Assembly (NCBI GenBank): GCA_017520845.1 | Contig: JAFXEU010000046.1 | Span: forward strand, 1,702-65,701 | Direction of reading: 5' to 3' | DNA length: 64,000 nt | Source: Kiritimatiellia bacterium | GTDB taxonomy: Bacteria; Verrucomicrobiota; Kiritimatiellia; RFP12; UBA1067 | In this document: piece after piece, positions 3,989 through 58,864 of the stretch | Position numbering within the stretch: the first letter of the stretch is position 1 | Layout of the letters: the number at the start of each line of letters is the position of its first letter | The notes under the pieces: model-generated | The model's input: the letters and a program-made list of their open reading frames with translations, nothing else | The model's database searches: none | What the model was told of the DNA's origin: nothing | Program-made: the position numbers and the translations under genes

Positions 3989-4795
3989 ATGAAAAAATTA
4001 TTGATAATTGCCGCCGCTGCTGTTGCGTGTGCGTTTGTTTCAAATGGAGCGGAGGCTAAGGCTGCGGCGAAAGCCAAAGTTGCTAAATTCAACATTGTCG
4101 AGCGCACTGAGGCTAAAGAGTTTACGGGTAAGGACGGAAAAGTTTTCCGTTATCGTATCGCCGAGAAAGCATCGCCTGACGGCTCTAAAATTCCGCTTGT
4201 CATATTCCTTCACGGAGCGGGAGAGCGCGGCACAAACAATCAGGCTCAACTCGTTCACGGCGTCGGCGATCTTGTGCGCTGGATGGATCAGCACGAGAAG
4301 GGCTATAGGCTGATCGCAGGCCAGGTTCCCTTCGGCAAGCGGTGGGTTGAAGTCAACTGGGGGGCTAAGTCTCACACGATGCCCGAAAATCCTTCCGAGA
4401 CGATGGCGCTTCTTTTGGAGATGCTTGATGCGCAGCTTTCAGACCCCGCGGTCGATCTGAAGCGCATTTATGTTACCGGAATTTCAATGGGCGGCTACGG
4501 AACGTGGGACTTGATTTCCCGCAGACCCGACGTGTTCGCCGCGGCTCTCCCGATTTGCGGCGGCGGTGATGTCGCTCAGGCCGCGAAGATTGCGAAAATT
4601 CCCCTCTGGACGTTCCACGGCAGCGCCGACGGCGCGGTTCCCGTGTGTCGCTCCCGCAATATGGTTTCCGCTCTTTGGGCTAACGGGTCCAATGCGCATT
4701 ACCGCGAATATCCCGACGCCGGGCACGCGGTTTGGGTTGAGACTTATAAGGACAAAAGAGTTCTCTCCTGGTTCTTCAAACAGAAGAAAAAGTGA
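3989..4795 (+). CDS. Secreted alpha/beta-hydrolase esterase (phospholipase/carboxylesterase-like)
   Basis: Signal peptide. HGAGERG oxyanion region, GISMGGYG nucleophile elbow, and later FHGSADG and GH motifs. Confidence 0.7.
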   Translation: MKKLLIIAAAAVACAFVSNGAEAKAAAKAKVAKFNIVERTEAKEFTGKDGKVFRYRIAEKASPDGSKIPLVIFLHGAGERGTNNQAQLVHGVGDLVRWMDQHEKGYRLIAGQVPFGKRWVEVNWGAKSHTMPENPSETMALLLEMLDAQLSDPAVDLKRIYVTGISMGGYGTWDLISRRPDVFAAALPICGGGDVAQAAKIAKIPLWTFHGSADGAVPVCRSRNMVSALWANGSNAHYREYPDAGHAVWVETYKDKRVLSWFFKQKKK

Positions 4796-25363: not shown

Positions 25364-25804
25364 ATGTTTACCGCTGACTGGATATGGCTTTACATCGGCG
25401 CCGCGCTTATGATGCTTGAGCTCATTTCGCCCGGTTTTGTAGTTTTCTTTTTCGGGCTCGCCGCGGCGACTACGGGTGTCTTGACCATGTTCGCGGAAGA
25501 CGCTTTCACGACGATCTGGCAGGTTTTGACCTTTGCCGGATTGTCGATAGTTTATCTCGTGTTTTTGCGCCGTGTCGTGAAGAAGCTTTTTTCAGGCACG
25601 GTCGAAACATCCGCATCTAATTTTGAAGATGATTTTCCCGGCAAGATCGCGGTAGTGACCGAGGATATAAATACGCCTCTTTCAGGGCGGGTTATGCTTG
25701 GGGATGCCGAGTGGACTGCAGTCGCCGATGTTCCGATCGAAAAGGGCGTTAACGTCCGCGTTGTCGTTCGCGACAATCTGACGCTTAAAGTCGAGCGGGT
25801 TTAG
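25364..25804 (+). CDS. NfeD-family membrane protein (short form)
   Basis: Two or three N-terminal TM segments and a C-terminal OB-like segment GRVMLGDAEWTAV...V.V. Confidence 0.6.
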   Translation: MFTADWIWLYIGAALMMLELISPGFVVFFFGLAAATTGVLTMFAEDAFTTIWQVLTFAGLSIVYLVFLRRVVKKLFSGTVETSASNFEDDFPGKIAVVTEDINTPLSGRVMLGDAEWTAVADVPIEKGVNVRVVVRDNLTLKVERV

Positions 25805-25869
25805 AGAACAGCGTTTAGATGTCGTGTGTTAGCGGCATAGGGCGATTGCCCTGTGCCGCTGATTGTCAG

Positions 25870-27084
25870 TTACGGCTCCAGCATAAGTTTGCGGAACTTG
25901 GCTATGTCCTCGTCGGTAAAGCCGACTTTTCTGACGTAGTTTTCGGCACGTTCCAATGTTGTCGTGCCCTTGCCGTGCCTTATGAAGCTTTTGGGGATAT
26001 TGTCGTAGAAGCCCTTGTGGTTGAAATGAGGACCCCGGTTCCAAAAGCCGGTAGCCTCCCAGTCAAGACTGAGATCGTCGTCGTTTACTCCAAGAAGCGC
26101 AAGAAGGACATAAGTGAGGGTCCCCGTGCGATCTTGTCCGGCATAGCAGTGGACGATAAAAGGGTAATTCTCTTCTTCGAGCATCAATTTGAAAATCTGC
26201 TTGAATTTTTTTTGAATTCCTTTGTTGTGAATGCCGCCGTAAGCCGCGAATGAAGCGTGCACCCAGTTGACGCCTGATCCGAGCGGCGAATTCGTCATGC
26301 ATAAGGTTTCCGAGTTGTTTCTCAAATCGATATCCGTTTTAAAGCCGAGATATTTAAGCATTTCATCGCGAGTCGATTGGCTTGAACGGGTTTTGCCGCG
26401 TTTGGTATCTTTTACGATTCTCTTGTTTCTGTTCGTCTGAGCGGCCTCTCACTCCGCCTGGCGGCCCAGATCAAACAGCTCCTTCTTGGTATAGTAGGTC
26501 TGTTTAGGATGATCGTTCATCGCCGCCGAGCGATAAATCATTCCCTGTTTGACGCGCTTGCCGTTAAGCCCGATATAACCGCCGAGATCGCGCACGTTCG
26601 GAACTCCGGGGAATCGGATAATGCGAGGGACGACGTCTTCGGTTTTGAAAGTCGATGAAACCGTCTCGCCGCCCGCAGTTACGGTCCACTTGTAGCCGGT
26701 TGCGATTTTCAGGTTGTCGATATAAGTGAATTTATCCTTAAGCGTCGCCTCGTAAGCGAGTTTTCCCGTTTCCGCTTCACAAACTTTTACGGTGTATTCC
26801 GAGCCGTCCGGTCCGTCCCATTCAAGACGTGTGGTCTTAGGCCACCAGCTTTTGCGTTCTTTGCCGTTAACTTTCTCGGCAGGAAGAGCGAGGACGCTTT
26901 TACGATAATCCTTATTACGGAATTTTTCGCGTCTTTCCTTAAGCGGCATTGTGACAAAAGCTTTCTGCGGATCGGTTAAAGTCGGCACAACCGCTGCGTC
27001 CGCCGGAGATACGGTTTTGAGTGAAGCGGCAGATGCGCTGAAAATCGTTAATGCAGAAAGAGTGATTAAGAGCAGGTTTTTCAT
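25870..27084 (-). pseudogene. Secreted tyrosine-phosphatase-family (CX5R) protein interrupted by one in-frame TGA (26449-26451)
   Basis: ORFs 26449..27144 and 25870..26361 are in the same frame. The intervening 87 nt is open and is preceded only by a TGA. The upstream half has a signal peptide (MKNLLLITLSALTIFSASA, start 27084) and NVRDLGG...YRS. The downstream half has DLR and HCYAGQDRTG. Confidence 0.6.
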
Positions 27085-27423
27085 TTTTACGCCTTTGCTG
27101 TTATTAAATGTCCTAATGTTAGCATTAATCGGCAGACGCGTCAATAGTTGCTCAACCTGGAATATCCCCAGTTTATAGGGCTGAATTTTGTTGTATACCT
27201 GATTTCATTGTGTAGAACTGATGTTTTATCGTCTAAAAATCTGAAAAAGTGATTCCTCGTCTGTACAACAGTAATTATTGTTTAGCCGTCAATGGCTTCG
27301 CGCTCTATTGTTGCTTGCATGTTGCTATGCTATATATAAAAGCGGCCACGGATATGAGCCACAGGGAGTTTTGTAGCGGAAGGTTTAATTCTGCGCTACG
27401 CTTAGTTGCGCTTGACGCGCGAC

Positions 27424-27661
27424 CACGAAAACTGAGGCGGTGACGAATCGCGCTCAAGGCGCGATTGAAGCGTCGATGTCCGCACTCACTTTGAGGCTTC
27501 GCCTCAGTAGCGCGTCCATCTACGCTTCACCCTATCGGGTTTCGTCACTCGCCTCAGACACAAAACCCCTACGGGGTCACGAAAGCATCTCCTGCGGAGA
27601 CTTACACGAAAAGTGCAGCATAAGACAAACATTGTACAATCTGCGAAGATTGTCAATTTTT
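27424..27661 (+). ncRNA. Candidate structured RNA, left copy (multi-helix domain, then hairpins separated by ACACGAAA-type linkers, then a terminator-like hairpin)
   Basis: Long-range helix 27432-27447/27541-27557 encloses three hairpins. Linkers lie at 27424-27431, 27558-27565, 27577-27584 and 27604-27612. A hairpin at 27632-27656 is followed by TTTTT. Confidence 0.4.
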
Positions 27662-27814
27662 GCAATAATGGCCTGATTTTCTTGTGCACTAACTTTCTAT
27701 GTCACTTTGGCAGTTGCTTTTGTGAAGTTCGTCATTTATGATGCGCACTACCTTACATCTATCATAGCCTTACGAAGTAGCTCGTAAGAGGAATGGCATA
27801 AGTAAGCCTAAGAC

Positions 27815-28134
27815 CTTAAACGAACTTCGGCAGAATGTACTCATTATCTCCAGTGTTGCGCTTTTCGTGTAGCCTCCGAAGGAGGCGTTTTTGTGTCGGC
27901 ACGAAGTGCCGCTTTAGTGTTTGAGTTAAGTGACGAAACCCGATAGGGTGAAGAGGCGTTGGGCGCACCACCGAGGCGAAGCCTCAAGGTGAGTGCGCAC
28001 GACGCCTCTTCAATCGCGCGGTAATTCGCCTGCGACGAAGTCGTCAGGTTGACCGACGAGCGTAGCGAGGAGCTTTCGCGGAGCGAAAGTCGCAAGAGTC
28101 CGAGCGCGATTCGTCACTAACTCAACTTTCGTGT
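27815..28134 (-). ncRNA. Candidate structured RNA, right copy (same architecture on the minus strand, about 80-nt expansion in one hairpin)
   Basis: The homologous helix 28110-28125/27921-27937 has four compensated differences from the left copy. Linkers lie at 28126-28134, 27913-27920, 27888-27896 and 27861-27870. No clear terminator. Confidence 0.35.
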
Positions 28135-28329
28135 TTCGCGGCGGAGCCGCCTCTGGAGGTTATGGTTATTACTGTTGTACAGAATGAATAAAGGCAAATG
28201 GGGAAAGGTGGGGATATTCCAGTTGCTCAGCATATTGACGCAAAAGCCCGGTTTGTGGTACCATACGAACGGGTTAAGGTCGCATTTCGGTTAATGTGGC
28301 CGTTGAATAAACAATGAAAGGAAAAACTT

Positions 28330-29274
28330 ATGATTTCTTTTATGTCAGCATTGAATTACGCCGGTTTGATTTTTGTAGGTTTAGTAGCGCTGATTGTAGT
28401 TATAGCCATTTTAAAGACCGCTGTCGTAGTTCCTCAGAAAACGGCCTACATCGTCGAGCGTCTCGGCAAGTATCGCTGCACTCTCGACGCCGGATTCCAT
28501 ATTCTGCTGCCGTTTTTCGACCGCATCGCATATCGCCATACGCTCAAGGAGCAGGCGATCGACGTGCCGCCCCAGGAATGCATCACGAAGGATAATATCG
28601 CCGTGTCGGTCGACGGCATTCTTTATATGCAGGTGATGGATCCCGCCAAGGCCTCGTACGGAATCGGCAATTATCTTTTCGCGACGACCCAGCTCGCTCA
28701 GACGACGATGCGTTCCGAAATGGGCAAGCTCGATCTCGACCGCAGTTTCGAGGAGCGCACTTCTATTAACGCGGCCGTTGTTGCGGCTGTCGACAAGGCT
28801 TCTGACCCGTGGGGGATAAAGGTTACGCGTTATGAAATCAAGAACATTACTCCTCCGAGGACGATTCGCGACGCGATGGAAAAGCAAATGCGCGCCGAAC
28901 GGGAAAAGCGTGCTATGATCGCCGAGTCCGAGGGCGAGCGTCAGGCCAAGATCAACCGCGCCGAAGGCGAGAGGCAGGAGGCGATTGCGCTTTCCGAGGG
29001 TGAACGCGCCCGCCGCATCAACGAGGCGGAGGGTCAGGCCAAGGAGATTCTTCTTGTAGCCGAAGCTCAGGCGGCAGGTATCACCAAGGTCGCCGAGGCG
29101 ATAAACGGCGCTGGGGGACTCGAGTCCGTCAATATGCAACTCGCCCAGCAGTATCTTGCCCAGTTCGGCAATCTCGCGAAGACCAACAATACCATGATCA
29201 TTCCTTCGAACCTTGCGGATGTCGCGGGCGTTTTGAAGGTGTGCACTTCAGTCATCAAGAAGGTTGAAGGCTGA
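28330..29274 (+). CDS. SPFH/band-7 (stomatin-like, QmcA/YbbK-type) protein
   Basis: N-terminal TM segment, an SPFH core (VPQKTAYIVERLGKY...TKDNI...) and a C-terminal coiled-coil EAEG repeat region. Confidence 0.85.
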   Translation: MISFMSALNYAGLIFVGLVALIVVIAILKTAVVVPQKTAYIVERLGKYRCTLDAGFHILLPFFDRIAYRHTLKEQAIDVPPQECITKDNIAVSVDGILYMQVMDPAKASYGIGNYLFATTQLAQTTMRSEMGKLDLDRSFEERTSINAAVVAAVDKASDPWGIKVTRYEIKNITPPRTIRDAMEKQMRAEREKRAMIAESEGERQAKINRAEGERQEAIALSEGERARRINEAEGQAKEILLVAEAQAAGITKVAEAINGAGGLESVNMQLAQQYLAQFGNLAKTNNTMIIPSNLADVAGVLKVCTSVIKKVEG

Positions 29275-35165: not shown

Positions 35166-35242
35166 TGGTGGACCCGGCGGGACTTGAACCCACGACCCGG
35201 AGATTATGAGTCACCTGCTCTGACCGACTGAGCTACGGGTCC
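35166..35242 (-). tRNA. tRNA with CAT anticodon (elongator Met, or Ile2 if lysidine-modified), CCA encoded
   Basis: The reverse complement GGACCCGTAGCTCAGTCGGTCAGAGCAGGTGACTCATAATCTCCGGGTCGTGGGTTCAAGTCCCGCCGGGTCCACCA folds as a cloverleaf. The G1-C72 pair argues against an initiator tRNA. Confidence 0.85.
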
Positions 35243-49355: not shown

Positions 49356-49389
49356 GTTCGTCAATCTGATTAAGAAAGGAAGTTTGAAA

Positions 49390-52300
49390 ATGAAGAGATT
49401 AGGAATTGACTTAGGTACTTCATCTATCGGATGGGCTGTATTAGATGATGAGAGAATTGCTTCTGCTCCGCGCGGACTTTATGCGCCTAATGTTATAGAT
49501 TGCGGGGTGGTCGTTTTCCCAGAAGGTATGGATCGTGATAAGTCCGGCAATTTAATGTCTCGTGCGGCTGAGCGTAGAATGAAAAGAGCGGCAAGACGTT
49601 TAATCAGGCGTAGGAGATATCGTAAATTTCATATTCTAAAACTACTCATTGAAAATAGCATGTGTCCTATGTCTCTTGAAAGCTTAAAAAAGTGGAAGGA
49701 GACAGGGAAATATCCTGTTGATGATAATGACTTTATGGATTGGCTTTCGGCTACGAATACGAAGAATCCTTATGTTGATAGGAAAAATGCGGCAGAGAGA
49801 CCTGTCGACGCGTATTCTTTTGGACGTGCTATATATCACATAGCGCAGCGTCGTGGCTTTAAGAGTTCTAAGAAAGAGCTTTTAGCGGAGTTTGATGCAG
49901 ATGATCAATCTGGTTCAAAGCAAAAGAAGGAAACTGAATTAGGTGAAGTTAAGCGTGGAATTAAAGAATTAAGTCAATTGATGGGGGAAAAGACGCTTGG
50001 TCAGTACTTTTATGAGTTATATCAGAAAGGTGAGAAAGTCCGCGGCAGAAAGACCGATAGAAAAGCGCATTATGAAAAGGAATTTGATGTAATTTGCGAT
50101 AAGCAGAAAGCTCTTGTTTCGTCTGAGTTGCGAGAGAAGATGCGTAGCATTCTGTTCTTTCAGCGTCCGCTTCGGATTCAGCGACATCTGGTCGGCTGGT
50201 GCGAATTGGAAAAAGGCAAGAAGTATCGCAGGTGTCTTGAAAGTCATCCTTTGTTTGAGCGTTTTAGAGCGCTGTGCTTTTTAAATAATTTTAAGGTTCG
50301 CAAAGAGGGTGCGGAAGGAGATTTTATTTCACTTACGCAGGAACAGCGGGACTTTATTCTCACTAAGATGATGAGAGTTACACCTTTTAAGGATGGTGTA
50401 AAAGCTTTGATGAAGGAATTTAACAAGGAATTCTCCGCTAAGGGAGAAGCGCCGTGGGTTTCGAACCATCGTGATTATGCGGATGTACCCATTCTTGAGG
50501 TGACGGCAAGGTTCGAAAAATTAGGAATACCTAAAACAGACTGGCAAACGGCACTAAACGCCTCTGTAGATTTTGATGATTTATTGATGCTTGAAGCATG
50601 GGCTAAAAAGAGATGGGGCTTTGATGATAAGAAGGCTCGCGAATTTGTCCGCATAAATCCATCTACGGAGCGCGCTAAATATTCTCTTCATGCTATAAAT
50701 CTTATTTTGCCGTGGTTAGAGGAAGGGTATAAATTAAGTCAGGCTATTTATCTCGCTAAGATGCCTGAAATAATTCCCGATTGGAATTCTAATAAAAGTA
50801 AGATATTGGAGATTATTGAACGTGAGACGGAGGCGTACCATAAGCAAAAGGACGGGTTTAAATATTCAAAGACGGCGCCTAAATTGGTTTCGTTGACAGA
50901 GCGCTTAAAATCGGCTTTCCGAGAATTTTGGATTTCAATAGGCGCGGCGGGCGCACTGTTTGAATCTGAATACGATAAATTATATATCGATAAGGCTTTG
51001 ACCGATATTGATAATCCTATCTTGCCTCCGGTAAATATGGGTTCTATTAAAAATCCTATGGTGTTGCATTCGCTTACGATGCTTAGGAGATTAGTAAATA
51101 CTCTCCGCGCGAATGGGACTATTGACGCGCATACCGTTATCAATATCGAGCTGGCGCGAACAGTGAACTCGGCGAACATGTGCCGCGCGATCGAGAAAAG
51201 AAATGTTGAGCTGGCGAAGGAGCGAGATGAAGCTAAGAAAGAATTAGCAGAAGAACTTAAAATCAATGGTATGACATCTAATATTGATGATGATCTTATC
51301 TTGAGATATTTATTGTGGAAAGAGCAAAATCGGTTTAGTGTTTATACCGGCCAGCAAATCTCGTTCAAGCAAATGGTTCAGGATTGCGATATTGAACATA
51401 CATTACCGAGGGCGAGAGGCGGCACGAACGAGCAGTCGAATTTAACATTGTGCGAGTCTCATTACAATCGTAATGTAAAAAAGAAGAGATTGCCGTGCGA
51501 ATGTCCAAACGCTGAAGAAGCATGGTATGACGATGAGGCAAAGATTGAATATCCCGCATTATTCTCAGGAAAGGTCTTAAAGGATTGGGAGGCTAAACTC
51601 GCATCGTTTGAGGAGGATTGTGCAAACAATAGAGGAGGTCGAGGGGGTGATCCTGAAGCGTATGCCAGAAAGCGGCAGAAGTTCTTGATGTATGATTTAA
51701 AGAGAGCTTATTGGAAAAAGAAAATAGGAATGTTCCGTATATCAGCGGAGCGAGCCCAAGAAACGGCATTTATGCCGCGTCAGTTAGTCGATACAGGATC
51801 GATAACTAAGTTCGCTGTAGAATTCCTTAAACAACGATATTCTAAGGTTTATCCTCGTAACGGCGCAGCCGTAGCGTTCGCGAGAAAAGCTTGGGGGATG
51901 CAAGAGTCTGACGAGAAGAAGGATCGTAGTGATCACACGCATCATGCGATGGATGCTATTGTGATAGCGGCATTGGATAATAAACGATTCGCGGATATAT
52001 GCGCAACATTAGGAAATATAGAGGATGATAGTCAGTATGTTTGTACTCCTCCGTATGAAGACTTTGGGGAGTTAGCGTACAAGGCTAGAGAAAGTATACT
52101 CGTAAGGCATATTCCGCTTAACCGAAAGATGGTTCCTTATCAAGAGTCGGCAACGAGGAAAAATCTCCGATTGGCTACCCCGGTTAAGCGGACGGACGGG
52201 TCGGTGATTTGTAAGGTTACTTCAAGCGGAAGTACGGTAAGGGGTAGTTTACACGATGATACCTTGTATGGAAAAATAAACATGCGGGGAAAGACGGTTA

Positions 52301-53067
52301 CAGTAATTAGAAAGACAATAGCTTCAGTTGGAAAGTTGGCAGATTTACAAAAGTTGGCGAAGGAAGCTGTAGATCCTTCAGTTGGAAAGACCCTGGCGCG
52401 TCAGATTGATGAATATTTAGCGCAAGGAGTAGATGGTGATAAAATTGCGGCTACTATGCCGTTTTGGGGGCCGAAGGATAAGGACGGTACGCCAGATAGA
52501 AACGGTATACCATTGAAGAAGGTTAGGGTTGTTTTTGGTAAAAATCCAGATCCGATTCGCAGCCACGATATGGTTAGTGAAAACGCGTTGCATAATTCTG
52601 TATATGGTTCGGGAGGAGATCTTTTAGAACTTGTTATAACTAAGGACGCAAAAGGTAAGGTTGTGCCGCGCAGTATCTCGCTAAAGGAAGGTGCTGAAGG
52701 TATAGAGATTGATAAAGAAGCTTTGGTAATACGTCCGGGAATGGCGGTCTTGTTCTTTGAGAAAAATCCAGAGGAGTTGTATAGTTTATCGCAAGACATA
52801 TTATCTAAGAGGCTTTATATCGTTCGTAAATTTGAAGACTCTGGGAGGATGAAATTGCGCTATCATAGAGAGGCGAGAATGGCGACGGTATTAAGTAAAG
52901 ATTTGGTGGCTATAAAAAAGAATAAGGACGGTCAATCTTCTATTGCTTATGATAAGCCTCATGAGTTACTTTTGATTAGTCCCAAGACATATATAAATAA
53001 CGCATTGTTTGAAGGTCGTGATTTTATTGTGTCATTGGATGGCAAAATTCAATTTCTGAATCGATGA
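49390..53067 (+). CDS. cas9: Cas9 (type II-C-like), RuvC and HNH motifs intact
   Basis: RuvC-I GIDLGTSSIGWAV. Arg-rich bridge helix RAAERRMKRAARRLIRRRRYR. HNH DIEHTLPRARGG...N..L......N. RuvC-III DHTHHAMDAIVIA. AAGGAAG RBS lies before the ATG at 49390 (the track start at 49384 is a TTG). Confidence 0.93.
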   Translation: MKRLGIDLGTSSIGWAVLDDERIASAPRGLYAPNVIDCGVVVFPEGMDRDKSGNLMSRAAERRMKRAARRLIRRRRYRKFHILKLLIENSMCPMSLESLKKWKETGKYPVDDNDFMDWLSATNTKNPYVDRKNAAERPVDAYSFGRAIYHIAQRRGFKSSKKELLAEFDADDQSGSKQKKETELGEVKRGIKELSQLMGEKTLGQYFYELYQKGEKVRGRKTDRKAHYEKEFDVICDKQKALVSSELREKMRSILFFQRPLRIQRHLVGWCELEKGKKYRRCLESHPLFERFRALCFLNNFKVRKEGAEGDFISLTQEQRDFILTKMMRVTPFKDGVKALMKEFNKEFSAKGEAPWVSNHRDYADVPILEVTARFEKLGIPKTDWQTALNASVDFDDLLMLEAWAKKRWGFDDKKAREFVRINPSTERAKYSLHAINLILPWLEEGYKLSQAIYLAKMPEIIPDWNSNKSKILEIIERETEAYHKQKDGFKYSKTAPKLVSLTERLKSAFREFWISIGAAGALFESEYDKLYIDKALTDIDNPILPPVNMGSIKNPMVLHSLTMLRRLVNTLRANGTIDAHTVINIELARTVNSANMCRAIEKRNVELAKERDEAKKELAEELKINGMTSNIDDDLILRYLLWKEQNRFSVYTGQQISFKQMVQDCDIEHTLPRARGGTNEQSNLTLCESHYNRNVKKKRLPCECPNAEEAWYDDEAKIEYPALFSGKVLKDWEAKLASFEEDCANNRGGRGGDPEAYARKRQKFLMYDLKRAYWKKKIGMFRISAERAQETAFMPRQLVDTGSITKFAVEFLKQRYSKVYPRNGAAVAFARKAWGMQESDEKKDRSDHTHHAMDAIVIAALDNKRFADICATLGNIEDDSQYVCTPPYEDFGELAYKARESILVRHIPLNRKMVPYQESATRKNLRLATPVKRTDGSVICKVTSSGSTVRGSLHDDTLYGKINMRGKTVTVIRKTIASVGKLADLQKLAKEAVDPSVGKTLARQIDEYLAQGVDGDKIAATMPFWGPKDKDGTPDRNGIPLKKVRVVFGKNPDPIRSHDMVSENALHNSVYGSGGDLLELVITKDAKGKVVPRSISLKEGAEGIEIDKEALVIRPGMAVLFFEKNPEELYSLSQDILSKRLYIVRKFEDSGRMKLRYHREARMATVLSKDLVAIKKNKDGQSSIAYDKPHELLLISPKTYINNALFEGRDFIVSLDGKIQFLNR

Positions 53068-53969
53068 TAAAAAGAACACTGGTTTTTACTACTTCGGGTA
53101 AGCTGCGCCTTCACCTTCGTCAATTAGTTTGGGAAGGTGAAGATGGTCACTCGTCGCAAGTTCCAATAGAGGATATAGGATTTGTTATATTGGAATCTCC
53201 TTTGATAACTGTCTCAATTGCATTATTGCGACAGTTAGCTATATCAAACGCGGCAGTTGTGATTTGTGACGCGTCGCATATGCCAGGCTCATATCTTCTG
53301 CCGGTTGCAGGGCATACAATGTGTCAGAAGGTAATGGGAATGCAGATTGAGTTGTCAGATTTAAAGAAAGATATTCTATGGGCACAGACTGTCAGAAGGA
53401 AGATATACAATCAAGGATGTATAGCAAAGAGGTATAATTTATCATTGGGGAGGGATTTGATTAAATGGTCCAAAGAGGTTAAAAGAGGAGATCCTAATAA
53501 TCTTGAGGCTCAAGCAGCTAGAGCGTATTTTACAATCTTTACTATGGATGAAATGCAACCGTTTCATCGCTCTCCAACAGGTCCAATGCCTAATCCTGCT
53601 CTTAATTATGGATATGCCATATTGAGGGCTGCAGTTGCGCGGGCGCTAGTTTCGGCTGGGCTTAATTGCATGATAGGCATTCATCACCATAATCAATATG
53701 ATCCATATTGCCTCGCAGATGATATAATGGAGCCGTATAGACCGTTCGTGGATATTCTAATATTGGAGAATTATAGTATATTTGAGAAGTCTGACGAGGT
53801 GACGCCAGAAATGAAGAAGGTGTTGCTTGGATTGTTGGTAATGGATGTAGAAATAGGTACGATGAAGCGTCCGTTAATGAACGCGCTTTCACTTACGGCA
53901 GCATCGATAGTCAGAGTGATTTCTGGTAAGGATGAAGAAATAGAATATCCGAAAGTAGAAGTCGGATGA
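53064..53969 (+). CDS. cas1: Cas1 (type II)
   Basis: ATGA overlap with cas9, 301 aa. Conserved NYGYAILR, HHHNQYDPYCLADD and EPYRPFVD segments. Confidence 0.9.
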   Translation: MIKRTLVFTTSGKLRLHLRQLVWEGEDGHSSQVPIEDIGFVILESPLITVSIALLRQLAISNAAVVICDASHMPGSYLLPVAGHTMCQKVMGMQIELSDLKKDILWAQTVRRKIYNQGCIAKRYNLSLGRDLIKWSKEVKRGDPNNLEAQAARAYFTIFTMDEMQPFHRSPTGPMPNPALNYGYAILRAAVARALVSAGLNCMIGIHHHNQYDPYCLADDIMEPYRPFVDILILENYSIFEKSDEVTPEMKKVLLGLLVMDVEIGTMKRPLMNALSLTAASIVRVISGKDEEIEYPKVEVG

Positions 53970-54328
53970 AAGGGCGAGAAACATCAATAGATTTATTCAC
54001 AAGTATAAGTCATTATAAAACTGTGTGGCTTTATGCGATGTTTGATTTGCCGGTGGTAACGAAAACCCAACGAAGAAGGGCGACGCAATTTCGAAAAGGC
54101 CTTCTTAAAGATGGGTTTAGTATGCTGCAATATTCAGTATATATTAGGCATTGTGCATCTAAGGAGAATATGGAGGTGCATGAGAAGCGTGTTAAAATGA
54201 TGACTCCAGAAGATGGTACGGTCTCGTTGCTGGCTGTTACAGATCGTCAATTCGGAGAAATGAAGACATTGTATGGTAAAAAAGTGCTGAAGCCTAAGGC
54301 GCAGCCTGTTCAATTGGAGTTTTTTTAG
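53966..54328 (+). CDS. cas2: Cas2 (type II)
   Basis: ATGA overlap with cas1. YAMFDLPV...QYSVYIRHC core. Confidence 0.85.
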   Translation: MKGRETSIDLFTSISHYKTVWLYAMFDLPVVTKTQRRRATQFRKGLLKDGFSMLQYSVYIRHCASKENMEVHEKRVKMMTPEDGTVSLLAVTDRQFGEMKTLYGKKVLKPKAQPVQLEFF

Positions 54329-54346
54329 CATTAGAGGATAAAGAGA

Positions 54347-54355
54347 TGATATAAT
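54347..54355 (+). promoter_or_regulatory. Extended -10 box TGATATAAT in the CRISPR leader
   Basis: Exact motif 51 nt upstream of repeat 1, on the same strand as the GTTGTG...ACAAT repeat orientation. Confidence 0.5.
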
Positions 54356-54406
54356 AGTAGTGTTCGCTTATTGATCTTTGATAATTTAAATGTAGTCTTT
54401 TATAAG

Positions 54407-55890
54407 GTTGTGAAAGGACATCTTTTTAAAGACTAATACAATGCACCGCATTTGTGCGACTCGCACCAACGGGTTGTGAAAGGACATCTTTTTAAAGACT
54501 AATACAATTCGGTATCTGCTTATACAAGCAGTCGCGTAGTTGTGAAAGGACATCTTTTTAAAGACTAATACAATTTCTGGCTTATCGTGCTTGCGTTCCA
54601 AATAGTTGTGAAAGGACATCTTTTTAAAGACTAATACAATAAGTATTTATGATACAATTCTGTATCTGTTGTTGTGAAAGGACATCTTTTTAAAGACTAA
54701 TACAATCTTCAGGAGTTCGAGGACGAGCTGAAGGCAGTTGTGAAAGGACATCTTTTTAAAGACTAATACAATATTCCCGTTAAAGACTCGGTAAAGCGGA
54801 AGTTGTGAAAGGACATCTTTTTAAAGACTAATACAATTATTCTGAGTACCATTAGTCAAACCAAGAGGTTGTGAAAGGACATCTTTTTAAAGACTAATAC
54901 AATTTTCCGTCGTGTCAAATGTCACCGTGACACGTTGTGAAAGGACATCTTTTTAAAGACTAATACAATTCCAAGATTCACAATTGAGGATTTCAGTATG
55001 TTGTGAAAGGACATCTTTTTAAAGACTAATACAATTTAACACATATTATGCGACACTCGTCACAGTTGTGAAAGGACATCTTTTTAAAGACTAATACAAT
55101 TCAGCGTCTCGTACTCGTCGTCGTCGCAGGTTGTGAAAGGACATCTTTTTAAAGACTAATACAATTCTATAAATCATTTACCTGTTCATGAATTGTTGTG
55201 AAAGGACATCTTTTTAAAGACTAATACAATACGAGCAACAAAGATACCAGCGATAAAGCCGTTGTGAAAGGACATCTTTTTAAAGACTAATACAATCCTT
55301 CAAGAGCAATACTTTGTGCAGTGTTGGTTGTGAAAGGACATCTTTTTAAAGACTAATACAATTGCTAAAAATAACACCCATGGAAATTATCAGTTGTGAA
55401 AGGACATCTTTTTAAAGACTAATACAATCACGAGAGAAGCGCGTGCATGTTTTTGAATTGTTGTGAAAGGACATCTTTTTAAAGACTAATACAATTGCAG
55501 CATTGTTAATACTACCTTCAGTTTCGTTGTGAAAGGACATCTTTTTAAAGACTAATACAATAAAAGAATGAAACAGTATGAATCATACATCGTTGTGAAA
55601 GGACATCTTTTTAAAGACTAATACAATTAACCGACAAAGAAAGGAGAATCAAACATGGTTGTGAAAGGACATCTTTTTAAAGACTAATACAATAGCCTTT
55701 GAGGGCGTCAAGCCTCCGGGCATCGTTGTGAAAGGACATCTTTTTAAAGACTAATACAATCTAAATCCGATTGACTGTTTTGATTATTAGTTGTGAAAGG
55801 ACATCTTTTTAAAGACTAATACAATGTTGCACACGAACATGCCGTTGGATGAAAGTTGTGAAAGGACATCTTTTTAAAGACTAATACAAT
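54407..55890 (+). CRISPR. CRISPR array: 23 identical 36-nt repeats GTTGTGAAAGGACATCTTTTTAAAGACTAATACAAT, 22 spacers of 29-31 nt
   Basis: Repeats were located by hand at 54407, 54473, 54539 ... 55790, 55855. All copies read as identical, and all spacers are unique. Confidence 0.97.
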
Positions 55891-58219: not shown

Positions 58220-58864
58220 ATGGGAAAATCAGCGGAGTTGATTATAGAGTCGAGAGGTGCGCATTTCGCGGCCGGACGCGTAAAACGCCCGTTTAAGAGC
58301 GGTATGCTTTTAAGGGCGTTCGGCGCTCTTTTTTTTCTATGCGCGGCGCACGGGTGCGTTTTCTCGGACGGCTCGCCGGAAATGGATCCTCGGCCAGAGA
58401 AATGGGCGAAGCCCGTCGAGTGCGCGGGAGTGCCGAATCTTTACAAAATAAACGATTCGCTTTACCGCAGCGCCCAGCCCACCGCCGAAGGAATGACCAA
58501 CCTTGTCTCTCTCGGAATAAAGACGGTTGTCAATCTTCGGGATTTTCATTCAGACGAGGACGAGATCGGTTCGCTTCCGCTGAAAATGAAACGGATAGAG
58601 GTTTTCACGGCGAATATGAAAGATGAATACGTGGATGAATTTTTATCTGTCGTCGCGGATACGAACGCGACGCCCGTTCTGGTGCACTGTCAGCACGGAG
58701 CCGACAGGACGGGAACGATGTGCGCCATGTATCGTATAATGTGCGAAGGATGGAATGTGGAAGACGCGATAGATGAGATGCAGAACGGAGGTTTCGGATA
58801 TCACTCCATCTGGTTGAATCTCCCGCGTTTCATTCGGAGGTCCGCGAAATCGCGCGGCAAATAA
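58220..58864 (+). CDS. Membrane/lipid-anchored dual-specificity (CX5R) protein phosphatase
   Basis: VHCQHGADRTG active-site loop. Hydrophobic N-terminal segment LRAFGALFFLCAAHGC (possible lipobox; alternative start at 58304). Confidence 0.7.
   Translation: MGKSAELIIESRGAHFAAGRVKRPFKSGMLLRAFGALFFLCAAHGCVFSDGSPEMDPRPEKWAKPVECAGVPNLYKINDSLYRSAQPTAEGMTNLVSLGIKTVVNLRDFHSDEDEIGSLPLKMKRIEVFTANMKDEYVDEFLSVVADTNATPVLVHCQHGADRTGTMCAMYRIMCEGWNVEDAIDEMQNGGFGYHSIWLNLPRFIRRSAKSRGK

Follow-up and report, generated by a model that had tools for sequence, protein, structure and literature searches.

A dispersed intergenic repeat of Kiritimatiellia built from inverted pairs of covarying four-way junctions, tentatively likened to REP and BIME elements

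The stretch of DNA analyzed here, hereafter the window, comprises 64,000 nucleotides of a Kiritimatiellia bacterium (GenBank assembly GCA_017520845.1, contig JAFXEU010000046.1, positions 1,702 to 65,701) and contains, in a gap of 1,245 bp between a phosphatase gene (start 27084, minus strand) and an SPFH gene (28330, plus strand), a noncoding element with two arms in inverted orientation. The initial annotation had described this element as a palindrome of two paralogous copies; it is not private to the locus but one copy of a multicopy, dispersed, and mosaic repeat, whose L and R arms nearly always occur as pairs, covary in their helices, show a pronounced strand asymmetry of loops and mismatches, and are enclosed in the window by a terminal inverted repeat (TIR). 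The pattern of substitutions supports the conclusion that the arms are under selection to keep a single-stranded fold, while the molecule that folds may be either RNA or single-stranded DNA. As the best explanation we propose, tentatively and with rather less than even confidence, a giant repeat resembling REP, BIME, and REPIN sequences that would act as a single-strand fold and work in either orientation.

The unit of the repeat is a head-to-head pair of an L and an R arm of about 270 nt each, with a centre of 70 to 330 nt between them. Each arm consists of a hairpin (P0), a nearly perfect four-way junction (P1 to P4), and two triloop hairpins closed by C-G, and its parts are joined by 8-nt linkers that read ACACGAAA on one strand and TTTCGTGT on the other. 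P2 corresponds to AAUCGCGC/GCGCGAUU in the folds, P3 is long, and P4 is ACCC-UAUC-GGGU; in the P2 stem and the P4 hairpin, conservation extends to the sequence as well as the pairing, and also conserved is the tip GAGGC-TTC-GCCTC, which had already been noted as a conserved apical hairpin. The homology of the left arm, read on the plus strand, with the right arm, read on the minus strand, was recovered with a repeat finder as 107 nt without gaps and with 82% complementarity (27459-27565 versus 27913-28019) and as a further segment with 84% (27424-27455 versus 28102-28133; the complete cores are given in Table 1). Since the arms align ungapped in the second helix, the 3-bp insertion assumed there by the initial annotation is no indel, and the difference consists of substitutions. 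Its reading of P1 was accurate, i.e., four base pairs differ between the two window arms, all four are compensated, and a 1-nt bulge is retained in both. Each arm folds far better than shuffled sequence (z scores of about -7 to -8), and for a transcript spanning both arms a giant inter-arm duplex is the predicted preference (-401 kcal/mol). The differences between L and R in P1 maintain the pairing within an arm and break the pairing between the arms, and therefore selection acts on the fold of each arm by itself.

Covariation was measured on a model-based alignment of 25 arms and on an independent MAFFT alignment of 18 arms. In the former 90.4% and in the latter 87.4% of the helix cells pair, and 39 and 33, respectively, of the 58 base pairs have changed on both sides. 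The model-based alignment contains 177 cells with a double change, compared with 56 +/- 6.6 in column shuffles, none of 500 of which reached this value; the corresponding figures for MAFFT are 113 versus 39.5 +/- 4.9. Slid controls, for which the 3' partners were moved by 1 to 3 columns, yielded 16 to 38 cells (model based) and 12 to 33 cells (MAFFT). Further compensated changes are present in three arms that lie outside both search patterns (L028a, L029b, and L031b; L numbers designate the loci that were fetched for comparison), e.g., GCGGCAAA/TTTGCCGC in place of GTGACGAA/TTCGTCAC in P1 and AGCC/GGCU in place of ACCC/GGGU in P4. The junction has remained intact in arms with independent insertions, which comprise 79 nt in P2 of the right window arm, about 60 nt in P3 of L015, and, upstream of P1 in L017, about 70 nt. 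The selection on a folded nucleic acid that had been suspected from the two window arms is thus substantiated by the compensatory double changes of the larger set.

The copies were collected with two exact-pattern scans, each with a different conserved block, which covered species-representative genomes (8 loci, 7 of them from two Kiritimatiellia metagenome-assembled genomes [MAGs]) and a metagenome collection (11 loci). One match in an unrelated genome (L014) was discarded as chance, and the 18 further loci stem from Kiritimatiellia MAGs and metagenome contigs. A profile search was followed by a covariance model, an approach that the initial annotation had recommended for the two arms and that was based here on 18 arms; the outcome was 25 to 26 arms from 18 sources, namely the window and 17 loci. 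The window itself holds only two, and no arm was detected in close relatives with an SPFH gene of 91 to 97% identity. At least six arms are located in a single MAG from yak rectum, in which four contigs end inside the element and the R-type arms at four loci are 93 to 96% identical. The flanking genes are unrelated (phosphatase, SPFH, smc, pnp, TonB-dependent receptor, sulfatases, nicotinamide mononucleotide transporter, HNH protein), no common neighbouring gene was found among the fetched loci, and the element borders on gene starts with about the same frequency as on gene ends. A riboswitch or another cis-regulatory leader is not supported, as the element has no constant position upstream of functionally related genes.

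The inverted L+R pair is conserved at seven loci (window, L015, L020, L021, L028, L029, and L031), with a variant arm as one of the partners in L028 and L029 and as both partners in L031. The mosaic character of the repeat is apparent from several rearranged copies. The left arms of the window and L021 are about 97% identical except for the whole P2-P3 cassette, which has been exchanged; L029 shows an alternating +/-/+ arrangement in which one P0 hairpin is shared; and in L030 the R arm has been deleted precisely between two ACAC(G)AAA linkers, with a duplicated copy present. The duplication in L030 is a segment of about 300 bp (2400-2700 and 4270-4572, 1.87 kb apart, about 99% identity) that includes the centre together with the deleted R arm and a flanking part bearing two terminators, and its second copy is located directly after a truncated arm at the end of an open reading frame (ORF). 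In L017 the L arm is paired with an arm designated type B, which shares P0, the CACGAAAGCUGAG start, and the centre motif with normal arms and in which a different hairpin of about 230 nt (GGTGGGTTAATCGGAGG...CCTCCGATTAACCCAC) replaces the four-way junction.

The roughly 80 nt by which the CGCGC hairpin of the right arm had been judged to be enlarged amount to exactly 79 nt, and this insertion is missing from L013, L016, L018, L019, and L021, which are otherwise 94 to 96% identical. Short purine-rich stretches of low complexity (e.g., CCAAGCCGAGCG, GCGAGGCCGAG, and GCGAAGC) were repeatedly found inserted within arms or next to them, irrespective of orientation, and may represent a second family of small, insertion-prone hairpin repeats. 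The window copy is stable. Four contigs that stem from three samples match its 1.6-kb region at 100% identity and L034 does so at 99%, while the L037 contig of another study, which stops within the right arm, shows 99% identity across the 1,044 bases covered. An assembly artefact was rejected on the basis of these independent assemblies, and so was an invertible segment, as no inverted variant of the centre is found among them.

With respect to the strand, the arms had been read inward, i.e., on plus for the L arm and on minus for the R arm, and an RNA transcribed in this direction had been favoured; the outward strand is the complement and is rich in G and A. An RNA acting from one strand normally shows an excess of G·U over A·C in its helices. 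Among the 1437 helix cells of the 25 arms, 27 are G·U and 22 are A·C (26 versus 23 in the MAFFT alignment), so the clear excess of a one-strand RNA gene is lacking, and since both combinations are equally rare, wobble pairs pick no strand. This result is in accordance with DNA or with a requirement for folding in both senses. The asymmetry of loops and mismatches is pronounced. The predicted hairpins of 23 arms contain 76 triloops. On the inward strand, 59 of these are U-N-C, which is G-N-A on the outward strand, and a single one is G-N-A; C-G closes 66 of the 76. Among tetraloops, the common UAUC and UAAC correspond to GAUA and GUUA on the outward strand. Helix mismatches on the inward strand are pyrimidine-pyrimidine in 93 cases versus purine-purine in 23, and C·U or U·C accounts for 75 of the former, equivalent to G·A or A·G on the outward strand and including a tandem GA in P3 of the left window arm. 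For RNA, the outward strand is predicted to be more stable in 22 of 23 arms, with a mean difference of 8.2 kcal/mol, part of which could reflect G/U-rich linkers, and for DNA in both arms tested, by 3.4 and 6.2 kcal/mol and with the same fold. Hairpin-plus-U-tract sites likewise occur on the outward strand of the arms, which accounts for three of four terminator-like sites in 1.6 kb, a total not above chance (2.1 +/- 1.6 in shuffles). Triloops, mismatches, predicted stability, and terminator-like sites all point away from the inward strand, and inward transcription is accordingly no longer the favoured reading of these base sequences. C-GNA-G triloops are classic extra-stable mini-hairpins of DNA, and GNRA and UUCG loops are absent from the arms, a combination that leans towards DNA without being decisive.

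The selected form would thus be a single-strand fold within each arm, most probably of the G/A-rich strand (minus for the left arm and plus for the right arm). Owing to the inverted arrangement, each DNA strand, and any transcript that crosses the element in either direction, would carry exactly one arm in this form; the element would therefore work whichever way round it is inserted, which would explain why it shows no orientation preference with respect to genes. A trans-acting enzyme might read the fold as single-stranded DNA and spread or maintain the repeat, and upon transcription the hairpin-plus-U-tract units of the far arm might terminate read-through and insulate operon boundaries.

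[quoted passage not shown] A 32-nt TIR assumed by the initial annotation is composed of three parts, i.e., a perfect 15-bp inverted repeat (14 nt in the output of the repeat finder, 27157-27170/28209-28222, and 15 by inspection), a 9-bp direct repeat with eight matches, and the -35 boxes CGTCAATA and TATTGACG. The window copy is thus located between two back-to-back -35 boxes and flanked by a possible target-site duplication. The same 15-bp ends are found in L015, L019, L021, and L028, and outer modules bearing them wrap the pair in the window, in L021, and in several copies of the yak-rectum MAG, with homology that begins and stops exactly there. The outer-L module recurs at 86 to 98% identity in L015 (alone, without an arm), L019, L021, and L028, its similarity commencing precisely at the 15-bp repeat, and the outer-R module in L013, L016, L018, and L021. 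Both modules share an inner motif for which 27261-27275 had been given on the left side; it is a perfect inverted repeat of 16 nt (TCTGTACAACAGTAAT, 27260-27275/28168-28183). A perfect 5-1-5 palindrome, CTGTAGTACAG, is part of the outer-R module. Dispersed noncoding copies with unrelated flanks, another hallmark of MITEs, are represented by the 25 to 26 arms. Membership in the MITEs is nevertheless undecided, because L021 lacks the duplication and other pairs lack the outer modules. The recommended search for further copies with target-site duplications or a linked transposase yielded the copies, a possible 9-bp duplication in the window alone, and no transposase in the window or the fetched loci. 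Within about 7 kb of the element no transposase, reverse transcriptase, or recombinase is encoded, as had been observed before. A mobile-genome origin was rejected, since the element had no blastn match in phage and plasmid collections and an exact 21-mer of the core is absent from IMG/VR.

Several observations weigh against the REP-like explanation. One P3 pair is U·G on the inward strand in 13 of 25 arms, and the hairpin of the R extension has G·U pairs on this strand (L015, L020, and L030). At three loci (window, L021, and L028), L-type arms combine a plausible inward promoter with an AT-rich terminator. Many pairs, e.g., in L015, L020, and L030, lack the outer modules, and the direct repeat flanks only one of the two complete copies. 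The copies of one genome differ by 4 to 7%, without a sign of very recent transposition, and several independent assemblies contain the window copy in identical or 99% identical form. A partner enzyme, such as an HUH/Y1 transposase, was not seen near any fetched copy or in the window, the genomes themselves not having been searched. Finally, the conserved sequence of P2 and P4 and the complexity of the junction characterize functional RNAs or specific protein targets more typically than known REP sequences or MITEs.

The inward features just mentioned are those expected if the arms were two convergent, independently transcribed genes for structured noncoding RNAs that end in or beyond the centre, possibly with hairpins of the partner arm as terminators. 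The putative sigma-70-like promoters of the L arms of the window, L021, and L028 are located about 75 nt upstream of P0, and the same arms end in a hairpin followed by T5, which was correctly recognized at the end of the left window copy. Strong covariation, the conserved P2 and P4, the P3 wobble in 13 arms, the G·U pairs that the 3' extension hairpin of R forms on the inward strand alone, and the lack of a match to known families would also be in line with such genes. However, many arms abut a stop codon or a terminator and leave no room for a promoter (L020a, L030, L025, and L027), R arms have no convincing promoter, the inward UNC triloops and C·U mismatches do not stabilize RNA, the inward fold is the weaker one in nearly all arms, G·U is not in excess, and a multicopy mosaic with deletion derivatives resembles repeat DNA rather than a gene family; we regard this alternative as a live rival, although a less probable one than the REP-like explanation. 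An opposite direction of transcription, from two facing promoters in the centre, would yield leader or regulatory RNAs that each carry the G/A-rich form of the opposite arm towards a flanking gene. The -10-like boxes of the centre are conserved with a fixed spacing of 18 bp (TATGAT/TAATGA, N18, ATCATA) and have -35-like partners, a TGTTAATGA box in L017, L028, and L030 resembles an extended -10, the stabilizing loops and mismatches lie on the appropriate strand, and both window arms point at the starts of flanking genes. But these promoters are weak and were read by eye, with one marginal minus-strand site of the centre in the promoter scan, the terminator-like hairpins precede the structured domain, whereas a riboswitch or attenuator would need the opposite order, half of the loci run antisense into the 3' end of the neighbour, and the flanking genes share no function. 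This scenario is accordingly quite improbable.

An element that acts purely in cis on transcripts at operon boundaries, as an orientation-independent terminator, insulator, or stabilizer of mRNA ends, and that spreads only by recombination would also be compatible with the intergenic position, in either orientation, shortly behind gene ends and shortly ahead of promoters. Transcription entering the element would stop at the far arm, which offers up to four stems, each followed by (C/G)UUU(N)GUGU. Outward terminator-like sites are present on both arms of the window (Table 1), related loci have U-rich tails like those of real terminators, e.g., TTGTGATTTTTTGTGTG in L030, and folding in both senses would explain helices of Watson-Crick pairs without wobble bias. 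On the other hand, the number of these sites is within the range of shuffled sequences, most linkers (CUUUCGUGU) are poor U-tracts, the conserved 58-bp junction with its invariant P2 and P4 sequences far exceeds the needs of a terminator, and its position downstream of the best terminator hairpins implies that it would rarely be transcribed; a purely transcript-level role of this kind is, in our opinion, about as probable as convergent RNA genes and less so than the REP-like explanation. A functionless inverted duplication in decay, whose compensated changes arose by template switching or gene conversion in quasi-palindromes, would account for the missing excess of G·U over A·C, and the exchanged P2-P3 cassette demonstrates that gene conversion operates. 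Against this explanation, the junction persists although the arms differ from one another at most helix positions, 71 further pair types being present, and it is kept through the independent 60- to 80-nt insertions in P2, in P3, and upstream of P1, the bias of loop sequences towards one strand is strong, and L and R types have remained distinct in several genomes, so that it appears very improbable. A broader proposal, which we consider conceivable although clearly on the less probable side, is that the arm represents a new class of folded nucleic acid with an obligate L+R hetero-pair, i.e., either a large structured RNA, possibly catalytic or protein scaffolding, or a single-stranded DNA recognition structure of a still-unknown mobility or replication system.

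The gap had been described as free of a convincing coding sequence, and this assessment holds. Between 27084 and 28330 only short ORFs overlap the gap, none of them a credible coding sequence, and gene callers predicted no gene there on the identical public contigs. In homologues, the frames of the 78- and 83-aa ORFs are disrupted by loop lengths of 3, 4, and 5 nt and by insertions of 60 to 80 nt; because such changes in loop length shift any frame, coding was ruled out, and a protein gene or small toxin ORF was rejected, the reading frame not being conserved. A 9-codon ORF in the centre (27797-27768, minus strand; M/V-P-F-L/F-L-R/Q-A/S-T-S/P-stop) is kept with synonymous changes within the centre motif, also in L015, L017, L020, and L030, and overlaps a hairpin and a promoter-like sequence (TTGCAA, 15-nt spacer, TATGAT). 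It was rejected as a gene, since a ribosome-binding site is not conserved. The putative promoter upstream of the L arm (TTGCTT, 27311-27316; 16-nt spacer; TATATA, 27333-27338) was read by eye and is below the threshold of the scanning tool; the module that contains it is conserved only in L021 and L028. The coordinates of all parts are compiled in Table 1.

Table 1. Parts of the repeat element and associated features. Positions refer to the window unless a locus is named.
Feature	Position	Strand	Details
Left 9-bp direct repeat	27148-27156		TTGCTCAAC; near-perfect, 8/9 match to 28223-28231; read from sequence; possible target-site duplication
Right copy of 9-bp direct repeat	28223-28231		TTGCTCAGC; read from sequence
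Outer-L module	27157-27275	+	Begins with 15-bp TIR CTGGAATATCCCCAG (27157-27171), ends with CTGTACAACAGTAAT
Module upstream of L arm	27276-27404	+	Sigma-70-like putative promoter, then two small hairpins
L-arm core	27405-27561		P0 (27408-27420) and four-way junction; covariance model, 166.7 bits
L-arm P1	27432-27447 with 27541-27557		From fold and covariation
L-arm inner helices	Within P1		P2 AATCGCGC/GCGCGATT, long P3, P4 ACCC-TATC-GGGT
L-arm distal hairpins	27566-27576, 27588-27600		CCCC-TAC-GGGG and TCTCC-TGC-GGAGA, ACACGAAA-type linkers between
L-arm distal end	27562-27661		GTACAATCTGCGAAG motif; AT-rich hairpin (27636-27653), then T5 (27657-27661)
Terminator-like site	27578-27564 plus TTGTGT	-	Terminator scan
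Asymmetric centre	27662-27799		Facing -10-like boxes TATGAT (27737-27742) and ATCATA (27761-27766), 18 bp apart
Centre motif	27763-27798		CATAGCCTTACGAAGTAGCTCGTAAGAGGAATGGCA; conserved in L015, L017, L020, L021, L028, L029, L030
Centre hairpin	27768-27790		G·U pairs solely on minus-strand reading in other copies
R-arm distal part, first hairpin	27872-27886		GCCTCC-GAA-GGAGGC, then GTTTTTGTGT; terminator-like on +
R-arm distal part, second hairpin	27897-27911		CGGCAC-GAA-GTGCCG, then CTTTAGTGTT; terminator-like on +
R-arm core	27917-28153		Four-way junction and P0 (28140-28151); covariance model, 160.5 bits on minus strand
R-arm P1	27921-27937 with 28110-28125		From fold
79-nt insertion	28024-28102		Hairpin forming, GCGA rich; in P2 loop of right arm
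Outer-R module	28154-28222	-	Includes ATTACTGTTGTACAGA (28168-28183); ends with 15-bp TIR (28208-28222)
L arm type			Outer P1 CUGAGGCG/CGCCUCAG; ends with AT-rich hairpin, then T4-5
R arm type			Outer P1 UUGAGUUA/UAACUCAA; ends with extension with conserved motif CATAGCCTTACGAAGTAG.T.GTAAGAGGAA.GGCA
Type B arms	L020 4230-4590; L017 4460-4716 (-); L015 7933-7997		
Purine-rich insertions	28024-28102; L015 5075-5170; L017 3990-4065; L026 40-110; L020 6540-6650		
Tandem tyrosine-phosphatase-family genes	25870-26361, 26449-27084		On the strand opposite to nfeD and the SPFH gene

The distal part of the R arm extends from 27800 to 27916, and its hairpins are conserved among R-type arms. In the window the element sits between the back-to-back promoters of the phosphatase and the SPFH gene, whose outward-facing -35 boxes (TTGACG) were also detected by the promoter scan. 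The neighbourhood includes the housekeeping genes dnaX, nfeD, comF, lysS, and those for topoisomerase IV, and SPFH homologues are annotated in Kiritimatiellia MAGs, both of which identify the organism as a Kiritimatiellia bacterium of the gut. In many relatives nfeD is located 33 nt upstream of the SPFH gene in a single operon (comparison with L006 to L011), while in the window the two genes are separated by two tandem phosphatase genes and the 1.07-kb element (25364-28330); a rearrangement or insertion has therefore separated this conserved pair. The SPFH loci of relatives (SPFH 91 to 97% identical) have no arms upstream and only the outer-R module, and hence there is no empty site that would define an insertion. 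This armless module (CTGT[T/A]GTACAG ... GGRGAWAWTCC, corresponding to 28168-28222 of the window) is located directly upstream of the SPFH promoter in L003 (3836-3902) and L004 (1581-1649) and is either an older remnant or a regulatory site of that promoter. A third gene of the dual-specificity/tyrosine phosphatase superfamily is found at 58220-58864 of the same 64 kb, and the family appears to be expanded in this genome.

The window also harbours, 21 kb from the element, a type II CRISPR-Cas locus (49384-55890) with genes for a Cas9 protein of 1,227 aa (RuvC_III and HNH_4; 49384-53067), cas1 (53064-53969), and cas2 (53966-54328) and an array of about 22 repeats (54407-55890), whose repeat is the first approximately 36 nt, a length determined by eye, of the 66-nt unit GTTGTGAAAGGACATCTTTTTAAAGACTAATACAAT. 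By eye, no likeness between the CRISPR repeat and the element is apparent, and no formal comparison was made. A tRNA-Met (CAT) gene at about 35166-35242 (minus strand) is the sole match of Rfam and ARAGORN in the window. At gathering score Rfam 15 matched nothing but this gene (as 35169-35242) in the whole window, the best hit for 26900-28500 at E values up to 10 was a fungal snoRNA (E = 0.85), and eleven related loci gave no match; ARAGORN found just the distant tRNA-Met. The conclusion that the element belongs to no known RNA family thus stands for riboswitches, ribozymes, transfer-messenger RNA, RNase P, 6S, HEARO, GOLLD, ROOL, OLE, and group II intron domains, all of which are covered by Rfam.

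The closest parallels among known systems are the REP, BIME, and REPIN sequences. These are likewise intergenic and multicopy, form mosaic clusters at operon boundaries, combine two unit types in inverted or alternating order with conserved linkers, as seen here in seven L+R loci and in the +/-/+ arrangement of L029, and keep their hairpins by compensatory changes. A REP unit is a stem-loop of 20 to 40 nt, and REPINs are REP doublets mobilized by RAYT transposases. The present unit, in contrast, is multibranched, with a four-way junction and three hairpins in about 270 nt instead of a short palindrome, occurs in few copies (at least six arms in one fragmented MAG), and has no consistent GTAG or CGTC tag, GTAG preceding only hp6 of the R type; no RAYT gene was identified near the copies or in the window, the genomes not having been searched for this family, and the host belongs to the Kiritimatiellota and not to the proteobacteria. 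The termination and mRNA stability roles proposed for REP and BIME are exerted from whichever strand is transcribed (cf. PMC3733652 and PMC3184786). With MITEs such as Correia/NEMIS, ERIC/IRU, BOX, and RUP the element shares its noncoding, dispersed, and promoter-adjacent nature, a strong structure across its length, and, in the window copy, the 15-bp TIR and the possible 9-bp target duplication. Known MITEs are, however, typically below about 400 bp and single foldback hairpins that are conserved at their ends and not in their interior, whereas here the interior junction is most conserved and covaries and many pairs have no terminal-repeat modules; we know of no parent insertion sequence for the element.

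Folded single-stranded DNA ends and origins are known from the inverted terminal repeats of parvoviruses (T- or Y-shaped hairpins at the two ends of the genome), the telomere palindromes of Streptomyces (C-GCA-G loops), and the paired priming signals ssiA/ssiB of RSF1010, which lie on opposite strands. They resemble the element in their multibranched folds of nested palindromes, the inverted pair, and the one functional copy per strand, with the extra-stable G-N-A triloops closed by C-G as a further parallel, but are located at the ends or origins of replicons with dedicated replication proteins, while the copies described here are internal, chromosomal, multicopy, and without cargo or such a gene nearby. 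The large structured bacterial noncoding RNAs OLE, GOLLD, ROOL, HEARO, and raiA are comparable in that they are hundreds of nucleotides long, have junctions supported by covariation and variable peripheral helices, and were found by comparison alone. In contrast to the element, which has no Rfam 15 match, they are clearly stranded, show a G·U bias and loops of the GNRA or UUCG type, and are not organized as inverted repeat pairs.

Neither Rfam nor the searched literature describes the element. A structured intergenic repeat is of a known kind, and its size, the four-way junction, the hetero-pairing, and the phylum are new as far as the available tools tell. The element is of practical relevance, as it breaks MAG assemblies, several copies being located at contig ends, and marks sites of genome rearrangement such as nfeD/SPFH. 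With its Watson-Crick helices without wobble bias and its one-stranded loops and mismatches, the family provides a clean comparative test of selection on RNA versus single-stranded DNA. Provided that the fold is functional, the Kiritimatiellota, which are abundant and little-studied bacteria of gut and rumen, would have their first described family of structured repeats, and the REP/BIME concept would be extended from hairpins of 35 nt to hetero-pairs of 270-nt four-way junctions.

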